A program made the position numbers and the translations under genes. The notes under the pieces were generated by a model. That model was given only the letters and a program-made list of their open reading frames with translations. It was not told where the DNA came from and did no database searches. DNA of 63,141 nt, counting the filler, from Octopus bimaculoides (lineage: Eukaryota), in the NCBI RefSeq assembly GCF_001194135.2. It is 6 parts of 5 records of this genome, joined end to end, with 100 filler letters (N's around TTAATTAATTAA, not from the genome) between each part and the next. Parts side by side here need not be neighbours in the genome. Positions count along the whole stretch, not along the records: positions 1 to 17,743 come from NC_069006.1; positions 17,844 to 24,322 come from NC_069009.1; 4 more parts are not named here. One strand, written 5' to 3'. Positions within the stretch are counted from its first letter, which is position 1. Each line of letters begins with the position of its first letter. This document shows, in pieces, positions 4,450-61,052 of this stretch.

Positions 4450-4790
4450 TCATTGTCATGTATCGTATGCCTGCAGCTCGTTAATGACACCGCAATGAAA
4501 ATCTTCCTGATTATGTGTGAGTTCTCCAGCTGTCTTTCCATTCTTGTCCAACCTGTTCTTCATATCATCCATCCTTTGCATTCTTTGCTTGTCTCTTGTT
4601 CTTCTACCCTCTACTCTTCCTTCCATAATAATGTTTTCTAAACCTCTGCTTCTTTGAATATGGCCATAATAGATGAGCTTTCGTTTGTTTCAGGAATTGT
4701 TGTCGTTCAGCCATTTCTTGTAACATTTTTTCATTCACCTGATGATCCTTGTAAGACCTGAATACGGCACCTTTGTTCTTTGACAGCAGC
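4450..4790 (-). mobile_element. RTE-clade LINE, 3' RT-thumb fragment
   Basis: Minus-strand frames give FRSYKDHQVNEKMLQEM and then KLIYYGHIQRSRGLENIIMEGRVEGRRTRDKQRMQRMDDMK, the RTE GH...LE..IMEG.IEG.R.RGRQR motif. Confidence 0.8.
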
Positions 4791-6458: not shown

Positions 6459-6974
6459 TACCTACATACATAAATCGATAGTATTGCTGCTAACTCCATA
6501 AACAGATATGTCACACTTTAAATTCTGGGTTTTCTGTCAGTTTAGTACCGCAGACATTACACAGCAGCGTTTGTGTACCTATTGCTGGCAGTAAGAACAC
6601 ACTATCTAGTGCCTATCTACCTATCCCTACCACCTTCGTCTCAGCAAATCAAGACAACCAATCAGGTGGTGTTGGCATTTTGTGTACTTTGTTACTTAGA
6701 AATATCTTGGTCTTTTGCCATGTTGACTCTTAGACCTCCTCCTCCTCTCCTCCTTCATCATCATCATCACCATCATCAAGTCTATGCATATGTATGTATA
6801 TCTATATCTGTCCATCTATCTATCTATATATCTATCTGCCTGTCTGTCTGTCCACCTGTCTATCTCTACACAATCACATGTATCATATACAAATACACAT
6901 ACATACTTATATGTATACATACATTATACATACACACATACACATATATATATATACATACACATATATATACA

Positions 6975-7345
6975 TACGCTGTTTATCAATAAGGCTACAA
7001 TCTTCAGCTCGGAACCTTGCGAACCACTTCCGTACAGTTCTTTCGGATAAAGACACATCACTGTAAACTGCGCATATTTCTTTGGTTGCTTGTGAGGCAT
7101 TTTTCCCTTTATGGAGAAAGAAAAGCATCAAGTACCGAAAATGAACTTTCTTATCTTCCATTTTAAAGGGTTACAGAATTAACACAGGTTATAAGAACAT
7201 AAACCTTCTTCCACGAAAAGATAGCTTAAACTGTGCTCTAAATGGAGGTGTAGTGAAATCCTATTTTATGGACTCAACCATGTTCTAAAATAAGTCGAAA
7301 GGTAAGCTACTATAAATCGGCATGAACTTTCCGGACAACCCAATA
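6975..7345 (-). mobile_element. Mariner fragment (one TIR plus the transposase N-terminal HTH)
   Basis: ORF 6907..7161 MEDKKVHFRYLMLFF...KGKNASQATKEICAVY...LSERTVRKWFARFR. The TIR reads TATTGGGTTGTCCGGAAAGTTC on the minus strand and ends at TA 7344-45. Confidence 0.9.
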
Positions 7346-10015: not shown

Positions 10016-10100
10016 TACAGGGTGCGGTGAATAAACTTTTGTCTAAATTACGCAAAAATGAAAATTAGCCTGACATCTCATTTTAACATATTTACCAAAA
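10016..10100 (+). mobile_element. Tc1/mariner-like terminal sequence (second copy at 35017..35102)
   Basis: TACAGGGTGCGGTGAATAAA...GTCTAAATTACGCAAAAATGAAAAT...CTGACATCTCATT recurs at 35017. The CAGGG start after TA is typical of the superfamily. Confidence 0.55.
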
Positions 10101-10109
10101 GGCAAAAAA

Positions 10110-10325
10110 AAAATAGATAGATACAACCCTCTTAAGTATAAAATAGCCTGGCTATGGAAAATGAAGAAGGTGGATATAGTGGCAATTATTGTTGGGTCCT
10201 TGGGAACAGTACCAGAAGGTATCAAGAGGAATATGAAGGAAATTGGAATAGAGTGCCCAGTAGAACTGTTACAAAGTGTTTGTCTCCTTGGCACGGCCAG
10301 AATAATCAGGTAGGTATTAGATAGC
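10110..10325 (+). mobile_element. 3' end of an RLE-type non-LTR retrotransposon (R4/Dong/NeSL-like C-terminus)
   Basis: Translates to KIDRYNPLKYKIAWLWKMKKVDIVAIIVGSLGTVPEGIKRNMKEIGIECPVELLQSVCLLGTARIIR*VLD. This matches the recalled K..KY..L...I..LW......V.P.V.GALG.....LQ...LLGTA.ILR.VL signature. Confidence 0.8.
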
Positions 10326-15114: not shown

Positions 15115-15238
15115 GTGTCTGTCTATCTACCTATCTACCTATCTGTCTATCTACCTGTCTGTCTATCTATTTATTTATCTAATGTCTAAGAGGAATTTTG
15201 CGAGCCACACTCCGTTTCTGTTCAGAAAATACACGAAA

Positions 15239-15248
15239 ATGGTTTTAG
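15239..15248 (+). CDS. ZP-domain protein, putative coding exon 1 (M-V-L + phase-1 G)
   Basis: gaaaATGG has a good Kozak context and is followed by TTAG|GTAAGA, a strong donor. The phase-1 end joins exon 2 in frame to give a clean signal peptide, MVLVSLLLAAVVATTA. The 10-nt length and an assembly gap in the intron limit certainty. Confidence 0.55.
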
Positions 15249-16348
15249 GTAAGACTAGTCAAGTTCTCGTAACTGTCCAGCTTCTTCTTCTTCTCCTTCT
15301 TCCAGTCTGTAAGATGATAAACACCCAGCATCGCCCTCAAAGAAAAACAAAAGAAAACTTTCTCTTGATGACACAGCCTTCTGGCTGAAGCCGACCGCAT
15401 TACTCTTATAAAACAAACAACACTGAAACGGTTTTCAATGAAGCTGACCTTTGACCGAGAAACAACCGAAAATGTATAATAGAATAGAATTAAAGAATTG
15501 CATTCCCCGACACCGACACCGGTCTTTTAACAGAACTTCTTCCAGACGTGCCCCCCACCCACCCCCGCTTGTCTCTGCTACTTTCATTGAAGTTTATTTC
15601 TCTTCCCATCTTCTGTCTTGTCTGTTTTTTTATTTTGTTTCCCTTTTTTATTTTCCTTTCTCTTTATCTTCCTCCACTTCTCTCTTGCTCCCTCCTCTCT
15701 CTCTCTCTCTTTATATATATATATATATATATTTATCTATCTATCTATCTATCTATCTATGTCTCTCTCTCTCCCCCTCTCTCTCTCTCTCCCGTCTCCC
15801 CCCCCCTCTCTCTCAGTCTCTGTCTGTCTGTCTGTCTCGTCCCGCTCTTCATTTGTCCTGTTTGTTATTTTAGTAACAACTTTTAGCCAAGAGCTTCTTT
15901 ATAATTCAGGAGTTTAAAATTAATTTAAAGACAACAACAATTTTTAACGATGATGATGGTGACAACAACAACAACAACAATGAAAACGAAAGTTCTGATT
16001 AGAAAAAAAAATGTTCTAGTTAATGTTTTAATTATTTAATCAAAATAGTTTTAGGGAAAAACAGTTAGAAAAACATTTATGGATTTCTTGTTGTGGTTGT
16101 TGCTGCTGCTGCTGCTATTGTCACTTATGTAAAATGACTCCAAGTTAGATTTAACCGCATAATGTTAAGTACAACCACCCCCTACACATGTACGTATGTA
16201 ATATGTATAATATGATAATAATAATAATAACAACACCACACCCATACATGCACACACAGACATATAATGTAATATATACATTTTTAAGTACATATATATT
16301 TGAATATATGTATGTGCATATGTGTGTATGTGTATATATACATACATA

Positions 16349-16528
16349 GGCGCAGGAGTGGCTGTGTGGCAAGAAGCTTGCTTCCCAATCACATGGTTCC
16401 AGGTTCAGTCCTACTACTTGGCACCCTGAGTGTCTTCTACTATAGCCTCGAGCTCACCAAAGCCTTGTGAGTGGATTTGGTAGATGGAAACTGAAAGAAT
16501 TCTGTTGTATATATATTACATATATATA

Positions 16529-16605
<77 letters not shown>

Positions 16606-16720
16606 TTTGTCTCCTCCACCATCGCTTGACAACTGATGTTGGTGTGTTTACATCCCTATAACTTAGCGGTTTGGCAAAGGTGTCTGATAGAATAAGTACT
16701 ATTTGCCTGACTAAAGGTGG
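16349..16720 (+). mobile_element. SINE family A with an expanded internal (TG)n(TA)n tract, in ZP intron 1
   Basis: Head at 16349..16505, microsatellite, then the 3' module CCATCGCTTGACAACTGATGTTGGTGTGTTTAC...GATAGAATAAGTACT. Confidence 0.85.
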
Positions 16721-17016
16721 TGCTCTCATGTGTATATGTATTTAAATGTATACATGAATGTATGTGTGTGTGTGTGTATGTGCATACATAACATGCATTT
16801 GGAAAGAGAAGAGAGAGCAATATATCATCATCACCATCACCATCATCACCACCACCATCATTTAACGTCTGTTTTCATTAAATGATGATGATGAAGATGG
16901 TGGTGGTGGTGGTGGTGATGTATATATTACACTCTCTTCTCCTTCCAAATGCATGCTATACATATATATATATACACACACACACATCCATGCATGCATA
17001 TACATACATACATACA

Positions 17017-17052
<36 letters not shown>

Positions 17053-17743
17053 TATATGCACCCCCCCCCTCTTGTGTCTATCATTTTGTTTTTGTTTTTG
17101 TTGTTGCATCTATTAATAAACAATCACACTTCTTGCTGAATCGATATGATTGCAATATTCACATATAAATACCTGTATCGATAAACTATCTCATTAGGCT
17201 CGCTGATTAATTACAATATCATCGCCATCGTCGTCGTCATAGTCGTCATCATCACCATCACCGTCATCCTCCTCCTTCTCCTCACCACCAACGCTATTAC
17301 CACCCCCACAACTCACAGCATTGCCATCGACATCAGCAGCACCACCACCATCATCATCATCATCATCATCCTCATGAAGGCAACTACTACCATCACCACC
17401 ACCACCACCACCACTACCATCATCGTCATCATCATCACCACCATCACCACCACTGTTATCATCATAATCATCATCCTCACGACAATGCTAACCACCACCT
17501 CACCCATCACCATTACCATCATCACCATCAACATCACTGTCATAATGATGACCACCACCACCACCACCACCACCACCACCACCACTACCATCACCGTCAT
17601 CATCAATTTTGTCTTTGATTCAATCACATTTCTGAAATCTTTATTCTTGTTCTGTTCTTTTTTTTTTTTTCTATCAGATTCGCAAAAAACATTCCCATTT
17701 GTATTCTTTAATTTTTTCTCTTCAATTATTTATCATAACCTCT

Positions 17744-17843
17744 NNNNNNNNNNNNNNNNNNNNNNNNNNNNNNNNNNNNNNNNNNNNTTAATTAATTAAN
17801 NNNNNNNNNNNNNNNNNNNNNNNNNNNNNNNNNNNNNNNNNNN
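17744..17843. other. Artificial 100-bp gap placeholder: N44-TTAATTAATTAA-N44 (also centred at 24367, 46445, 56876, 58795)
   Basis: An identical 12-mer flanked by N runs occurs five times. It is a palindrome with TAA in all six frames. Confidence 0.9.
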
Positions 17844-18035
17844 TATATATAACTGTACAAACTCTGCCAAATCAGATTGGAGCCTGGTGTAGCCATCTGG
17901 TTTCACCAGTCCTCAGTCAAATTGTCCAACCCATGCTAGCATGGAAAGCGGACATTAAACGATGATGATGATTCACTCACTCACCTGCTCACTCATTCAC
18001 TCACTCTCTCACTCTCTCTATCTTCCCTTTTTCAG

Positions 18036-18200
18036 TCTCCCTCCTTCTAGCAGCAGTAGTGGCCACCACTGCCAAATTCAACATGGACAACATTAATGTC
18101 AAGGTCAAATGTAACAACATGATTGCCTTGACCTCTGACCTTGATCTTTATGTTGTGGCACGGTGCCGAAATGGTGTTCATCGGTATTACCGACACAGGG
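18036..18200 (+). CDS. ZP-domain protein exon 2 (signal peptide h-region and start of ZP-N)
   Basis: Acceptor tcttcccttttttcAG (18034-35) and donor AGGG|GTAAGT (18201). Phase 1/1, open frame SLLLAAVVATTAKFNMDNINVKVKCNNMIALTSDLDLYVVARCRNGVHRYYRHR, carrying ZP-N Cys1 and Cys2. Confidence 0.8.
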
Positions 18201-18345
18201 GTAAGTAGACAGTTTCAGACATTAATACATACATACATACATTCATACAAACATACATACATACTTACATACATACATACATGCATGATCATGGCTGTCC
18301 ACTCGTGACCGAGGAAGACCATCACCGACCTTCAGGAACATAACA

Positions 18346-18766
18346 CCAACCACTCCAAGAGTGTAGTGGGTGCTTTTACGTGCCGCCAGCACGAAGGCCG
18401 GTCAGGTGAGCGGTACTGGCAACGGCCACACTCTAAATGGTGTATTTTATGTGCCACCTGCACAGGAGCCAGTTCGGCGGCACTGGCAACGATCTCGCTC
18501 GAATGTCTTGACACATGCCATCTGGCACAAGTGCCAGGAAGGCGATGCTGGGCNNNNNNNNNNACGATCTCGCTCGAATGTCTTGACACATGCCATCTGG
18601 CACAAGTGCCAGGAAGGCGATGCTGGGCACAGGTGCCATGACGATTTCGCTTTCGCTTGCCCCAACAGGTCTTCACAAGCCAAGTTCCGTGTCCGATGAA
18701 GGAGACAACGTTGGCATGGGTGCCAGTCGTCGAATTTAATTCGATTTCAATTTCACTTGCCTCAAC

Positions 18767-18770
<4 letters not shown>
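18346..18770 (-). mobile_element. Family C internal segment in ZP intron 2
   Basis: CCAACCACTCC.AGAGTGTAGTGGGTGCTTTTACGTGCC matches the distal end of 22660..22850. Confidence 0.7.
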
Positions 18771-18803
<33 letters not shown>

Positions 18804-19262
18804 TATATGATGATATCTCCACAATGTGCTGATGAGAAAAGCATGTAATCGCTACCAATATAGCAAGAGATTTCTCCCCAAAGGTCTAAAGTAGACTCCT
18901 TAAGGATCGATCTCCTTGGTTATATATCAAGTTTAAAATTTAAAAGAGAGTTTTGACGCTGATATCCATTATTATTGAAATTTATTCCTATGTCAACATT
19001 TCTGTATAAGGCTATATTTACCTGTCAAATTCAAGTCAAACATATAATTTACCTTACACATCTTCAGGGCAAAAAGTAAAGAACAAAAAGTAAACACCAA
19101 AAACATCATCTCTAAGTCTAGTTCATATATATATATATATATATATATATACCCCCAGATATACATACACCTATATGCATACACACCTACATGCACATCT
19201 ACAAATAAACTCCTACACATGTGGAGATAGGCTTCATCGGTATATTCTTTCATTTTTTTCAG

Positions 19263-19597
19263 ATGAATACCAGCTGACCATTCCGATCTGCCAGAAATCA
19301 TGTTCCCGGTACACCTGTCACATGATGCAGCGCGGCAACATCAGAGAGTACTACGTACGATTGCAGGTTAGCACGAAACAGTCGAGGATACTCCGGAAGG
19401 GATACATAGTGAGGTGCTCCTTTGCAAGGTACGGCAAGGCAAAAGCAAAGACCATTGTTTATCTGACGGGAGCCAGAAAGAATGTAACAAGGTATGTGGC
19501 GACAAGGATCGGCACGAAGAAGCGAGTCAACCTGATGATGAGGCTGAAAGACTCCCGTGGAAGAACAGTCACCAAATTGACAACAGCTAAGAAAAGG
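19263..19597 (+). CDS. ZP-domain protein exon 3 (rest of ZP-N, linker, first strand of ZP-C)
   Basis: Acceptor tattctttcatttttttcAG (19261-62) and donor AGG|GTGATT (19598). Phase 1/0, within ORF 19175..19729. (D)EYQLTIPICQKSCSRYTC...YYVRLQV...GYIVRCSF resembles the ZP-N strands with Cys3 and Cys4. Confidence 0.85.
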
Positions 19598-19669
19598 GTG
19601 ATTATGAGGCATTCATTCATTTCACTGTTGTTTTTTGTTTGCTCATTGGTTGGTTTTTTTTTTTGTATC

Positions 19670-19980
19670 TTAGTGGTTAGGGGTGTTGGACTCATAATTG
19701 TAAGATTGTGGTTTCGATTCCTGGACTAGGCAGTGAATTGTATTCTTGAGCAATGCTTTCATCTTTAAAAAGTGGAGGTGCATGGCTTAGTGGTTATGGT
19801 GTTGGACTCGTCATGGTAAGATTGTGGTTTCAATTCCTGGACTGGGCGAACCATTGTGTTCTTGAGCAAAACACTTCATTTCACGTTGCTCCAGTCTGTT
19901 CAGCTGTAGACATGAGTTCCACTAGTGGAGGCGCATCACTTAATGGTTAGGGTGTTGGATTTACGACTCTAAGATTGTAC
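19670..19980 (+). mobile_element. Three tandem tRNA-like SINE heads related to family D, in ZP intron 3
   Basis: Repeated (GTGGAGG.GCA)TGGCTTAGTGGTTA.GGTGTTGGA...AAGATTGTGGTTTCGATTCC at about 19670, 19774 and 19924. Confidence 0.7.
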
Positions 19981-20070
19981 AGTTCTATATTTAAGAGATA
20001 AGGAATTATGTACATTATTTACATTATTTACAATTGACGGATATTTGTCCTCATCTTGTTTGTTGTTAAC

Positions 20071-20168
20071 ACAACGTTTCGGCTGATATACACTCCAGCC
20101 TTATGTATTAGTATAACGCTCGGGAAGTGAAAAAGTCTTTAACATTTCGAGCCTACGCTCTTCTACAG
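20071..20168 (-). mobile_element. Two degenerate hammerhead-like motifs of a Penelope-type terminal repeat in ZP intron 3
   Basis: Minus strand: CUGUAGAA GAGC GUAG GCUC GAAA and AA GGCUG-loop-CAGCC GAAAC GUUGU. The CUGAUGA core is mutated in one and truncated in the other. Confidence 0.45.
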
Positions 20169-20492
20169 AAAGGAACAAAGAAAGAAACTAGGTGAGAAAA
20201 AAAATAATATAAATATATATATATATATATATTATTAGATATGGTATACACCTGGTAGCATACTGGTAAAGTACAGTGTTCATTAGGTATTTGATTAATG
20301 AATGAGACTGAAGATAGAAGATTCGAGAATGTTTATTAATCACTACAGTTGCTTCAAACCATTTAGCATTGATCCCTCGTGGTATATCACCATTCTTTGT
20401 TAATAATTTCTTAATGACTTCCTGAAATTCTATGTAGCATCCTAAATTACTCAAACTTCAAAACCATTTCTGTGCATTTTTCTATTCGTCAG

Positions 20493-20789
20493 GTTCGTCT
20501 TGTCAGTGAAATGAACGATTCCAACGGCACAAAGAACATCGTCATACGGAACTGCTTCGCCAAGGCCAGACGGAAACGAATTCTACTTCTGCGAAACGGC
20601 TGTGGCACGGGTAAAGTGTTCAAGACCAAGCAAGGTTTCATCAACCGAGGAAACAGGATTGAAAGCCCATTTTTTAAAATCCATCGCCATAAGGGCAAGA
20701 CCGCTGTCGATACGTTCTATTGCACTTTCAAGATATGTAAATCTCATTGCCACATCATAAACAGCTGCAAAGCCGCAAGAGGCCATTAA
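20493..20789 (+). CDS. ZP-domain protein exon 4 (ZP-C, terminal)
   Basis: Acceptor gcatttttctattcgtcAG (20491-92), phase 0, within ORF 20472..20789. IRNCFA...ILLLRNGCGTGKVF...GF...IESPFF...FYCTFKICKSHC...SC matches the ZP-C pattern of mollusc vitelline-envelope ZP proteins (recalled as ILxxGCGDGxVF...GF...SPYF...FxCNFTxC). Stop TAA at 20787-89. Confidence 0.88.
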   Translation, partial: VRLVSEMNDSNGTKNIVIRNCFAKARRKRILLLRNGCGTGKVFKTKQGFINRGNRIESPFFKIHRHKGKTAVDTFYCTFKICKSHCHIINSCKAARGH

Positions 20790-20969
20790 AATAATTAAAC
20801 TACCCCTTGTCCCCTTCATCCATGATGTCTATACCCTAATTTTCTTGTTCTTTGCTGGCTATCTTTCAATTTCTGTTGACCAAATCCACTCAGAAGGCTT
20901 TGTTCAGCCCAAGGCTATTGTGATGGCCATTGTTATTACCACTGAATTATATAAATCCATATATTGTAC

Positions 20970-20975
20970 AATAAA
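20970..20975 (+). terminator. Candidate poly(A) signal AATAAA of the ZP gene (ATTAAA variants also at 20785 and 20794)
   Basis: First canonical AATAAA downstream of the stop codon. There is no transcript evidence. Confidence 0.3.
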
Positions 20976-21180
20976 TTTATATGTGAACAAATGTATTACT
21001 TTCTCTCCCTCTATCTCTCTCCTCTTATATATATATATATGTCTGAATATATGCTTATTTATATTTGTATATTTATTTGGTTGTTTAGTAAATAAATTAT
21101 TTTATGCAATAATTCTCTTTGTTATTTTTGTTAGTCTTTTGTCTCAGCATAAAACCCCTGCCAAAGTCAACTTAGTCTTT

Positions 21181-21787
21181 CATTGCATAAAAGAAGGGAA
21201 TACAACACTTCAAAATAGTGTTTTTCTTTTGGTTGTCTTTCAATTTGTGCGGCACCATTTCTTTAGTATTTTTGCTTTTCCAATCTCTTTCAAGAGGTTG
21301 GAAATTGTTGTGTACCTTACGTCTAATTCAGAATCAAGCTCTCAAACGGTTGTGCATGGATTGGCTTCGACTAAGGCTCTTAGTTGATCATTGTCAACAT
21401 CCGATGGTCGACCACTACGCTTTTCATCTTCAAGACTCTCATCACCACTACGAAATTTCTTGAACCACCATTGTGCTGTACATTCATTAGTGGTTCCTGG
21501 GCCAAATGCATCGTTGATATCGTGAGCTGTTTCAGCAGCTTTTTGGCCTAACTTGAACTGGAATAAGAAAATTGTGCAAATTTGCTTTTTGTCCATGTCG
21601 TATTCAACGTTCCGGAAAAAATGGCTTAATTATAAAAAAAAAAAAAGAATAACATGATTAGAAAGAGTGAAAAACGGGCTTTAAAATTATATATAAAGTC
21701 AAAGTAATTTAATGAAAATTAATTTGAAAATACATCATTTAAAACCAAAATTAAAAATTCCGCAAGAACTTTCTTGACAACCTAATA
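21181..21787 (-). mobile_element. Mariner fragment, cecropia subfamily (Hsmar1-like), TIR plus HTH up to a degenerate WVPHEL region
   Basis: ORF 21342..21596 MDKKQICTIFLFQFKLGQKAAETA...QWWFKKFRSGDESLEDEKRSGRPSDVDNDQLRA. The frame continues with stops and shifts to KW.PHKL. TIR TATTAGGTTGTCAAGAAAGT ends at 21787. Confidence 0.92.
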
Positions 21788-60079: not shown

Positions 60080-60468
60080 AGCTAATGGAAAAGTGACAGA
60101 GAAGGTGAGAAAGAGAGGGAGATATAGGACGTAAGGAATTTTGAAGACAGTCGTCGTTGTTTATTTCCTCACACCGGCTTCTGAGACGCACAGACACACA
60201 GACACACGCATATACATAGTTACTCTAACACTCAAACACACACACACAGAGACAGACACACACACACAAACATACATACGCTTACGCACGCACATACACA
60301 TACAGACACACGCAAACATACGTATGCACATGCACATATACATAAATACACACACACATGTACCATCGTCCACCTTTTTCTTCCCGTTCGCTGTGAACGT
60401 CAAGAATTCTTTCTTAATGCAATTTCGGGGACCAGGTAGTCATCACGAACAGTCCTTGCTGTGTCAAT

Positions 60469-60940
60469 ATGGTTCGGCAAAACAGCTATTATAGTTATTC
60501 TTCATCTTCCTTTTTACTTTGTAATACTTTTTGCGTTACCGTTTCTTTGATTTGTGCCGGCCAACTGTTGCTGCTTTTCGGAAGAGCTCAGGCAGTGCTG
60601 GGGCACATGAAAGTCCCAAGTGCTATGTCTAGCGAAAAACCCCGGACAGTTTTAGGGAAATACGGTAATTATACTTGGCCAAACCGTCAACTTGCCTCTA
60701 AGATCGACGGCGAAATAGTAATCGGAGCTTTACATATGATTCACGAGAGAAGCGAAGATATGATCTGTGGTGCTATCATGCCGGACGGCGGTATACAGGC
60801 GCTGGAAGTTATGCTTTACACCATAGATCACATAAATAAGGACCCTGACTTCTTACCTGGGATAAGGTTGGGTGTCCTTGCAAAGGATGACTGCGACCGG
60901 GACATCTACGGACTCGAGCAATCAGTCGACTTTATCAGAG
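60469..60940 (+). CDS. Class C GPCR (metabotropic glutamate receptor family, mXR/mangetout-like), first coding exon: signal peptide and start of the Venus flytrap domain
   Basis: ORF 60469..60945 contains IDGEIVIGALHMIHE...CGAI...GGIQALEVMLYTIDHINKDPDFLPGIRLG...DDCDRDIYGLEQSVDFIRG, the hallmark N-terminus of an mGluR VFT. Kozak caatATGG. Phase-1 donor AGAG|GTTAGT at 60941. Later exons are not evident in the window. Confidence 0.95.
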
Positions 60941-61052
60941 GTTAGTCTTAACTACTACTACTACTAATACTACTACTACTAATAATAATAGTAATACGAT
61001 AAATCATCATCATCGCCATCATCATCATCATTATTATTAATGTTGTTGTTGC

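Follow-up and report, generated by a model that had tools for sequence, protein, structure and literature searches.

A strongly basic ZP module of the VEZP family without a C-terminal propeptide in Octopus bimaculoides, a candidate egg-envelope subunit

LOC106880446 of Octopus bimaculoides encodes a zona pellucida (ZP) module of the mollusc VEZP class. Its two most distinctive traits, both absent from the preliminary description of this DNA, are an extreme positive charge and a missing C-terminal propeptide. The unusual charge and the lack of an assembly-controlling tail make it likely that the protein is secreted as a component of the egg envelope, and we give roughly even odds (about 0.5) to the product being a VEZP-family structural subunit of that envelope, co-polymerising with membrane-anchored paralogues. 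New here are the truncated annotation, the absence of the first coding exon from the window (the whole stretch of 63,141 nucleotides analysed) and a propeptide-less ZP module with extreme charge.

Results

The annotated gene model is truncated

Exons 2 to 4 correspond to LOC106880446 (XP_014785894.1, 249 aa, UniRef A0A0L8IH93); the gene had been presented as hidden, but is already annotated. RefSeq names the product 'vitelline envelope sperm lysin receptor', which is a domain label and not a demonstrated function. XP_014785894.1 is identical to residues 20-268 of the 268-aa protein described previously. It starts at an internal ATG at 18083 in exon 2. This 249-aa model is cut short and lacks the signal peptide, which is regained both in the 268-aa model and in the RNA-corrected 270-aa model described below. 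In Table S2 of Shimizu et al. 2022, Ocbimv22031179m.p is listed with a ZP profile spanning 1-249, and the tree text places this id among the VEZP tips. It is probably the same gene, the link being one of length and annotation only. Gene and family name are therefore on record, and the placement in the VEZP clade probably is as well. A main-text literature search for LOC106880446 and six accession ids gave no match.

Recomputation of the four proposed intervals reproduced GT/AG splicing with phases 1,1,0 into 807 nt encoding 268 aa. The features are as follows.

15239..15248, plus strand: first exon of the preliminary description, ATG plus 7 nt with a GTAAGA donor, probably a chance donor
18036..18200, plus strand: exon 2, encoding the signal peptide's hydrophobic core and the first part of ZP-N (Cys1, Cys2); X1 contig depth 8227
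18201..19262, plus strand: phase 1 intron with GT..AG ends, containing repeats and a gap of 10 N; spliced out in contigs of X1 and X18
19263..19597, plus strand: exon 3, remaining ZP-N (Cys3, Cys4, two extra cysteines), interdomain linker and first ZP-C strands (predicted IHP); Pfam 29-138
19598..20492, plus strand: phase 0 intron with GT..AG ends, containing multicopy repeats; spliced out in X1
20493..20789, plus strand: coding part of exon 4, ZP-C with six family cysteines and TAA stop; Pfam 140-231
20790..20975, plus strand: 3' UTR, reaching at least 20929 in X1 and at least 20964 in X18

Poly(A) hexamers are located at 20794, 20970 and 21091. Reads were mapped to 17900-21200. None of the matching runs listed is on record as RNA; X1 and X18 were treated as RNA because their contigs are spliced. 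A single 802-nt contig of X1 (depth 10257) covers both GT..AG junctions, 18200/19263 and 19597/20493, and runs past the stop codon to 20929, and the first junction was also found in X18 at a depth of 5.3. Both downstream junctions predicted from the genomic DNA are thus spanned by RNA.

In X1 RNA, the exon preceding exon 2 is not the proposed one

The proposed junction 15248/18036 was not supported. In the X1 contig over exon 2, the 28 letters upstream of 18034 differ from the proposed exon 1. They match nowhere in the window at up to three mismatches, the best ungapped match being 21/30. X1 joins exon 2 to another first exon, which gives a 270-aa precursor beginning with M-I-L-H-R followed by a hydrophobic leader. 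An ATG at most 12 in-frame codons from a GT[AG]AG donor occurs at 5 of the 24 donors upstream of exon 2. Since three control stretches display a similar frequency (4/28, 4/25 and 6/38, or 4-6 per 18 kb), the candidate at 15239-15248 is at chance level. The X1 contig and this frequency rule it out as first exon of the dominant transcript. A minor isoform may use it, as read mapping was confined to 17900-21200. The RNA-derived first exon may lie within one of the seven N gaps (1271 N in total) that precede exon 2, or beyond the window. The signal peptide is predicted from hydropathy, with a Kyte-Doolittle 9-residue mean of 2.7 in the exon 2 core and an in-frame ATG that precedes it by five codons in the RNA contig. 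Exon 2 is 82% identical in the O. vulgaris model CAI9743372.1, and the O. vulgaris protein has the same leader.

The protein is a stand-alone ZP module of the VEZP class

The spliced protein matches Pfam PF25272 VERL_C over positions 1-231 of 231 (E 6e-58, 196.8 bits against a cut-off of 27.2). Exons 2, 3 and 4 match it in order at 1-25, 29-138 and 140-231 of 231, with E values of 0.0064, 1.3e-12 and 4.4e-29. A six-frame profile search for other ZP genes in the window returned exons 2-4 only, the next match being a simple repeat at E 0.03. The 91 homologue matches, self included, comprise abalone VEZP16, VEZP23, VEZP5 and VERL as well as Mytilus, Patella, Lottia, Argonauta and Lingula proteins. 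The best homologue belongs to the abalone VEZP16 cluster (27% identity), and the aligned VEZPs from abalone, mussel and limpet share just 19-28% identity with it. All ten family cysteines are present, four in ZP-N and six in ZP-C, each in a column that is Cys in 51-54 of the 54 aligned proteins. The two extra ZP-N cysteines of the octopus protein are each found in 1/54. Assignment to the mollusc VEZP class, made beforehand from the sequence, is borne out by this profile match, the VEZP16-cluster homologue, the cysteines and the top-ranked ZP folds described below. The terms 'secreted' and 'stand-alone' apply as well. A signal peptide is predicted, and the leader directly adjoins the ZP module without preceding N-terminal ZP-N repeats. 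Word-indexed homologue searches, which are insensitive, returned the protein itself or itself and LOC106869837, and yielded no full-length orthologue in any other octopus or in squid.

In a quick tree of 89 rows (11 omitted as short or near-duplicate) the octopus protein forms a long branch, and its composition is atypical. It clusters with two cephalopod paralogues, P0010 and P0026 (SH-aLRT 94), which carry hydrophobic tails as judged by hydropathy and by eye, respectively. Its clade contains tailed and tail-less forms together.

The predicted structure is a bipartite ZP-N, linker and ZP-C immunoglobulin-like fold with a mean pLDDT of 83 and a pTM of 0.53. The top nine rows from Foldseek were all ZP modules (uromodulin, ZP3, ZPD filament). 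A comparison with the VERL ZP-N fold had been suggested, and the model matched VERL repeat 2 in VIA-align (Z 10.0, rmsd 2.4 over 90 residues). The ZP-C side of a ZP3/ZP1 filament fragment (8rki_B) followed with Z 9.1 and rmsd 2.8 over 117. All eight chains with Z of at least 8 were ZP proteins; the whole-module rmsd values of 19-38 make the relative placement of the two domains in the model tentative. Exons 3 and 4 gave no match to solved structures by sequence search; all matches came from fold searches. In P0001 numbering, strands are modelled at 99-107 and 129-136 around a low-confidence segment at 109-122 (pLDDT <50). After the final modelled strand (225-233), only a short helix remains before the chain ends.

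Extreme charge and absence of the C-terminal propeptide

With a net charge of +44 versus -20 to +25 in 52 homologues (z 4.1), the octopus module is the most basic of the 53 compared. It contains 31 Arg and 28 Lys versus 11 acidic residues. The stop codon lies six residues past the last cysteine, and X1 RNA reads through it. Downstream of this last ZP-C cysteine there is no cleavage site, the sole R-x-K/R-R site being internal. The model has no C-terminal propeptide with an EHP strand (external hydrophobic patch, strand G), and the highest 19-residue hydropathy of 0.83 reveals no transmembrane or GPI anchor. Among the aligned proteins, 34/53 have an R-x-K/R-R site and 17/53 a hydrophobic tail; a short tail is also found in 11/52 homologues.

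Abalone VEZP16, VEZP23 and VEZP5 (PF25272) share with the octopus protein a signal peptide, a single ZP module, the ten family cysteines and the GCG/GF/SPxF motifs. In contrast to the octopus protein, they possess an R-x-K/R-R site and extend beyond the last cysteine into a tail, are far less basic and have no counterpart of the two extra ZP-N cysteines. Abalone VERL and VEZP14 (lysin receptor and decoy) have a homologous C-terminal ZP module (VERL E 6e-14) and, unlike the octopus protein, extra N-terminal ZP-N repeats, reported to be the lysin-binding parts (bioRxiv 10.64898/2026.07.29.741504). The missing tail has parallels in limpet VEZP models (Patella caerulea KAK6196125.1 and KAK6185371.1; Lottia ESO97217.1, ESO97220.1, ESP04894.1 and ESO83787.1), which consist of a single module ending 3-11 residues past the last cysteine, these ends being predictions. 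Their charge of -13 to +20 differs from +44, and they form a separate clade.

One reading of these two traits is that subunits lacking the EHP repel one another through their positive charge until a polyanion or high salt shields it, the charge taking the place of propeptide cleavage as the switch for self-polymerisation. The joint absence of cleavage site, EHP and anchor, backed by RNA through the stop, is consistent with such a switch, as are the top rank in basicity and the linker poorly modelled as a monomer. However, several short-tailed homologues are acidic (e.g. P0015 -9, P0041 -12, P0062 -13), so tail loss does not require positive charge, and we regard this switch as improbable. There is likewise only a slim chance that the module is secreted 'pre-activated' and self-repelled, and is set into filaments of chorion or egg-stalk cement by sulfated polysaccharide.

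The composition would also suit a soluble, non-polymerising cationic protein derived from a VEZP and acting as antimicrobial, cross-linker or glycan binder. The internal RRKR and nine dibasic sites could free cationic peptides. Extracts of cationic egg-case proteins of cuttlefish are reported to be antibacterial (PMC4500399), and nematode ZP-C proteins are described that terminate before the EHP strand (PMC7456536). We nevertheless consider a soluble protein unlikely, given that ZP-N, ZP-C, linker and 10/10 family cysteines are retained as in a polymerising module.

Abundance appears confined to few samples

The exon contig of X1 reaches a depth of 10257, whereas the unique intron contigs from that run have depths of 14-39. 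Depth was 0-6 in X2 and X18 and below 2 on the exon bins in 12.9 million raw reads taken from X21, contig depth being a poor measure of expression. As inferred from contig depth, this pattern is that of a bulk product in few samples.

Discussion

The egg-coat, capsule, mucus or cuticle function suggested beforehand from the sequence is a candidate role. The relatives with established roles are egg-coat proteins, which by analogy supports a function in the egg envelope. More than 30 abalone vitelline envelope proteins are reported to carry a ZP module (PMC3567151), and mussel VERL is described as female-specific (PMC3511322). Our literature searches found no paper naming a ZP protein of a cephalopod egg envelope, and none on vitelline envelope sperm lysin in cephalopods or on a vitelline-envelope zona pellucida domain in squid; PMC7024357 contained nothing pertinent. 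The LOC106880446 product is therefore a ready candidate for such a protein.

The polymerisation model applied here comes from uromodulin (PMC7737619), which together with vertebrate ZP1/ZP3/ZPD filaments provided the best structural matches. These are anchored precursors activated by cleavage and EHP release, whereas the octopus gene encodes no such propeptide. Uromodulin cut before the EHP is reported not to be secreted and to polymerise inside the cell (PMC7737619), so a module without the tail must be held back in some other way. As an egg-envelope subunit, the octopus protein would be produced in large amounts in a single tissue or stage. Neighbouring subunits might complete its linker and open EHP groove, the way they do in uromodulin filaments, and an anchored partner such as LOC106869837 or another VEZP would set the site of assembly. 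The basic surface would bind acidic or sulfated matrix components.

Several points count against a role in the egg envelope. ZP proteins are reported to be often co-opted for non-egg matrices (PMC9290575, PMC13361971), kinship with tailed paralogues is no proof of co-assembly, and the low identity (19-28%), long branch and atypical composition set the protein apart. It is possible, at less than even odds, that it belongs to a matrix outside the oocyte, such as oviducal-gland cement or egg stalk, spermatophore wall, sucker cuticle or mucus, where a basic protein sets with acidic polysaccharide. The outlying charge fits such a matrix, as do the description of octopus oviducal-gland cement as mucoprotein and sulfonated mucopolysaccharide (PMC8976471) and the highly cationic egg-case proteins reported from cuttlefish (+70 and +42; PMC4500399). 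Abundance in few samples suits a gland as much as an ovary. On the other hand, those VEZP-family proteins whose site is given in the literature found belong to the vitelline envelope, and the main text of the O. maya oviducal-gland paper (PMC8976471) uses 'vitelline' 0 times and 'zona pellucida' 3 times, apparently not on an octopus ZP gene.

If a charge-switched octopus module did exist, it would represent a protease-free mode of ZP assembly. LOC106880446 offers a natural case for testing if ZP filaments are able to form in the absence of EHP release and membrane anchoring, two steps that work on uromodulin has seen as coupled and necessary.

Gene structure and annotation

LOC106880446 is a real gene whose family had been called correctly and whose first exon had been misplaced, and it is already annotated. 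The preliminary description had composed a hidden four-exon gene of the following intervals.

15239-15248 (+): proposed exon 1
18036-18200 (+): exon 2
19263-19597 (+): exon 3
20493-20789 (+): exon 4, coding part

A splice check reproduced the GT/AG ends, the phases (1, 1, 0) and the 807-nt frame of 268 aa. Exons 2, 3 and 4 were scanned separately and matched a single Pfam family, PF25272 (VERL_C), at profile stretches 1-25, 29-138 and 140-231 (of 231), respectively. This consecutive tiling is not chance. In a six-frame profile search of the whole window nothing beyond these exons was better than E 0.03. The complete protein matched the full VERL_C profile (E 6e-58), confirming the assignment to the mollusc VEZP-type family. 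The exon 4 query returned one protein with 100% identity, XP_014785894.1 / A0A0L8IH93 of Octopus bimaculoides LOC106880446. This 249-aa protein is annotated as 'vitelline envelope sperm lysin receptor', showing that the gene was not hidden, and is identical to residues 20-268 of the proposed protein; the annotated model starts with the ATG at 18083 and lacks a signal peptide. Table S2 of Shimizu et al. 2022 (PMC9290575) assigns residues 1-249 of Ocbimv22031179m.p to a ZP profile, the supplementary tree text has it among the VEZP tips, and the article describes VEZP as conserved in molluscs. Matched by length and annotation only, Ocbimv22031179m.p is probably LOC106880446.

RNA support and the first exon

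In an RNA test, four sequencing runs (X1, X2, X18 and X21) were compared with positions 17900-21200. One 802-nt contig of X1 (depth 10257) joined 18200/19263 and 19597/20493, both with GT..AG, passed the stop codon and ended at 20929; unique intron contigs of this run had depths of 14-39. X18 contained the joint 18200/19263 at depth 5.3, and the contig holding it begins 93 nt ahead of the acceptor of exon 2. X2 yielded only an unspliced stretch covering exon 3 (depth 4), and exon-bin depth was <2 in X21 (12.9 million raw reads, ~6% of the run). Both proposed junctions downstream of exon 2 were thus borne out, the first of them in two runs, and the gene is therefore spliced as proposed from exon 2 onward. 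It is abundant in one of the four runs, though contig depth reflects expression only poorly.

In X1, the contig covering exon 2 (depth 8227) carried 28 additional upstream letters, which belong neither to the intron nor to the proposed exon 1. They hold an in-frame ATG, from which the reading frame opens with M-I-L-H-R and runs into the hydrophobic segment encoded by exon 2; the RNA-corrected precursor has 270 aa. The window contains no match to these letters at up to 3 mismatches (best ungapped match 21/30), which places the true first exon in an assembly gap or outside the window. Seven assembly gaps (1271 N) are located upstream of exon 2. Candidates resembling the proposed exon 1 occurred at 5 of 24 donors upstream of exon 2 and at 4/28, 4/25 and 6/38 donors of control stretches. 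As these rates are alike, the interval 15239-15248 was probably a chance pick, and in the dominant transcript other letters precede exon 2. The predicted secretion survives this error because the hydrophobic core sits in exon 2.

The O. vulgaris model (P0014, CAI9743372.1) is 82% identical across exon 2, retains the hydrophobic core and continues with unrelated sequence beyond the splice point; it is probably a mis-modelled orthologue. The interval 15226-15248 (+) is preceded by a pyrimidine run and an AG (15224-15225) and followed by a strong donor, and might serve some transcript as an internal micro-exon of 23 nt. Twin 44-N gaps flanking the 12-base spacer TTAATTAATTAA (17788-17799) occupy 17744-17843, with four similar places, and resemble the markers used for assembly gaps whose size is unknown. 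The true first exon could be concealed in the one at 17744-17843, which lies 190 nt ahead of exon 2.

Other elements in the window

60418-60945 (+): open frame, hydrophobic leader and start of an ANF_receptor domain (Pfam E 1e-7)
21342-21629 (-): Mariner/Mos1 transposase remnant
6907-7170 (-): Mariner/Mos1 transposase remnant
10074-10313 (+), 38291-39150 (-), 4456-4689 (-): candidate retroelement pieces

The first frame may be the opening coding exon of a metabotropic glutamate receptor gene. Both transposase remnants matched Pfam HTH_48 (E 2e-15 and 1e-19), and one lies directly downstream of LOC106880446. The last three frames resemble decayed LINE or Penelope pieces; a Pfam scan of four frames left three without a match and gave one weak unrelated match.

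Predicted fold and family

The proposed comparison with the VERL fold came out in favour of a predicted ZP module. An AlphaFold2 model of the 249-aa protein (mean pLDDT 83, pTM 0.53) consists of two beta domains with a poorly defined linker (109-122), their relative orientation being undefined by the model. Foldseek rows 1-9 were uromodulin, ZP3 and ZPD structures, and all eight chains with Z of at least 8 in an exhaustive structural alignment were ZP proteins. The N-terminal domain matched VERL repeat 2 (Z 10.0, rmsd 2.4, 90 residues), the C-terminal domain ZP-C domains (Z 8.1-9.1). A preprint (bioRxiv 10.64898/2026.07.29.741504) assigns lysin binding to the N-terminal ZP-N repeats of VERL. 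In contrast, the octopus protein is devoid of such repeats and, on that account, is not a VERL.

A search of 1.84 billion representatives yielded 91 matches including the query. Among the 20 named ones, the abalone VEZP16 cluster was best; the others were VERL, VEZP23, VEZP5 and Mytilus, Patella, Lottia, Argonauta, Octopus and Lingula proteins. ESM Atlas indicated the same families. In an alignment of 54 of the 91 matches, selected chiefly by near-complete coverage and moderate length, the octopus protein has all ten family cysteines and two additional ZP-N cysteines of its own (1/54 each). A quick tree of 89 rows grouped it with LOC106880366 and LOC106869837 of O. bimaculoides, an Argonauta protein and a Logan protein (SH-aLRT 94), a placement that is tentative due to a long branch and atypical composition. 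LOC106880366 (P0050 / P0099 / P0100) is an O. bimaculoides VEZP paralogue outside the window, whose models break off early in ZP-C and are apparently incomplete. Its contig and that of LOC106880446 are equal in size (11,991,813), so that both genes are probably linked.

Charge, missing propeptide and possible function

The 234-residue module has a net charge of +44 (pI 10.7), whereas 52 homologues average +1.2 (SD 10.4) and span -20 to +25, one truncated paralogue being left out. The chain ends 6 residues past the last cysteine at a stop confirmed by RNA. A sequence scan of the octopus protein detected neither a cleavage site after the last cysteine nor a hydrophobic anchor, and its predicted model contains no strand G (EHP). 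Among 53 aligned proteins, an R-x-K/R-R site follows the module in 34, a hydrophobic tail is present in 17, and 12, including the octopus one, have tails of at most 12 residues; several limpet models and some partial sequences are among the short-tailed proteins. These homologues and the nematode ZP-C proteins ending before strand G described in PMC7456536 provide precedent for a tail-less form, and PMC13361971 mentions that cleavage sites are not universal among ZP proteins.

According to PMC7737619, uromodulin polymerisation is blocked by the EHP and released by cleavage, the neighbour's linker takes the place of the EHP, and membrane anchoring and assembly are coupled. Uromodulin cut before the EHP is described there as not secreted and polymerising inside the cell. 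By this account, a natural EHP-less module would need another brake. Charge screening might be such a switch if the octopus module self-assembled, which we regard as improbable. That the strongly basic chain is simply a soluble cationic protein, despite its predicted ZP fold, is just as improbable. A component of gland cement, cuticle or another non-oocyte matrix (PMC8976471, PMC4500399) is a better, albeit still doubtful, candidate. We give a probability of roughly one half to a secreted egg-envelope subunit. As such, the predicted protein would be secreted and would join heteropolymers with membrane-anchored VEZP paralogues, given that PMC3567151 reports >30 ZP proteins in abalone envelopes, and its basic surface may bind an acidic matrix. 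What the analysis adds to the existing annotation is the corrected N-terminus, the charge and the missing tail, and the latter two make the octopus protein convenient for testing whether ZP modules assemble in the absence of a propeptide.
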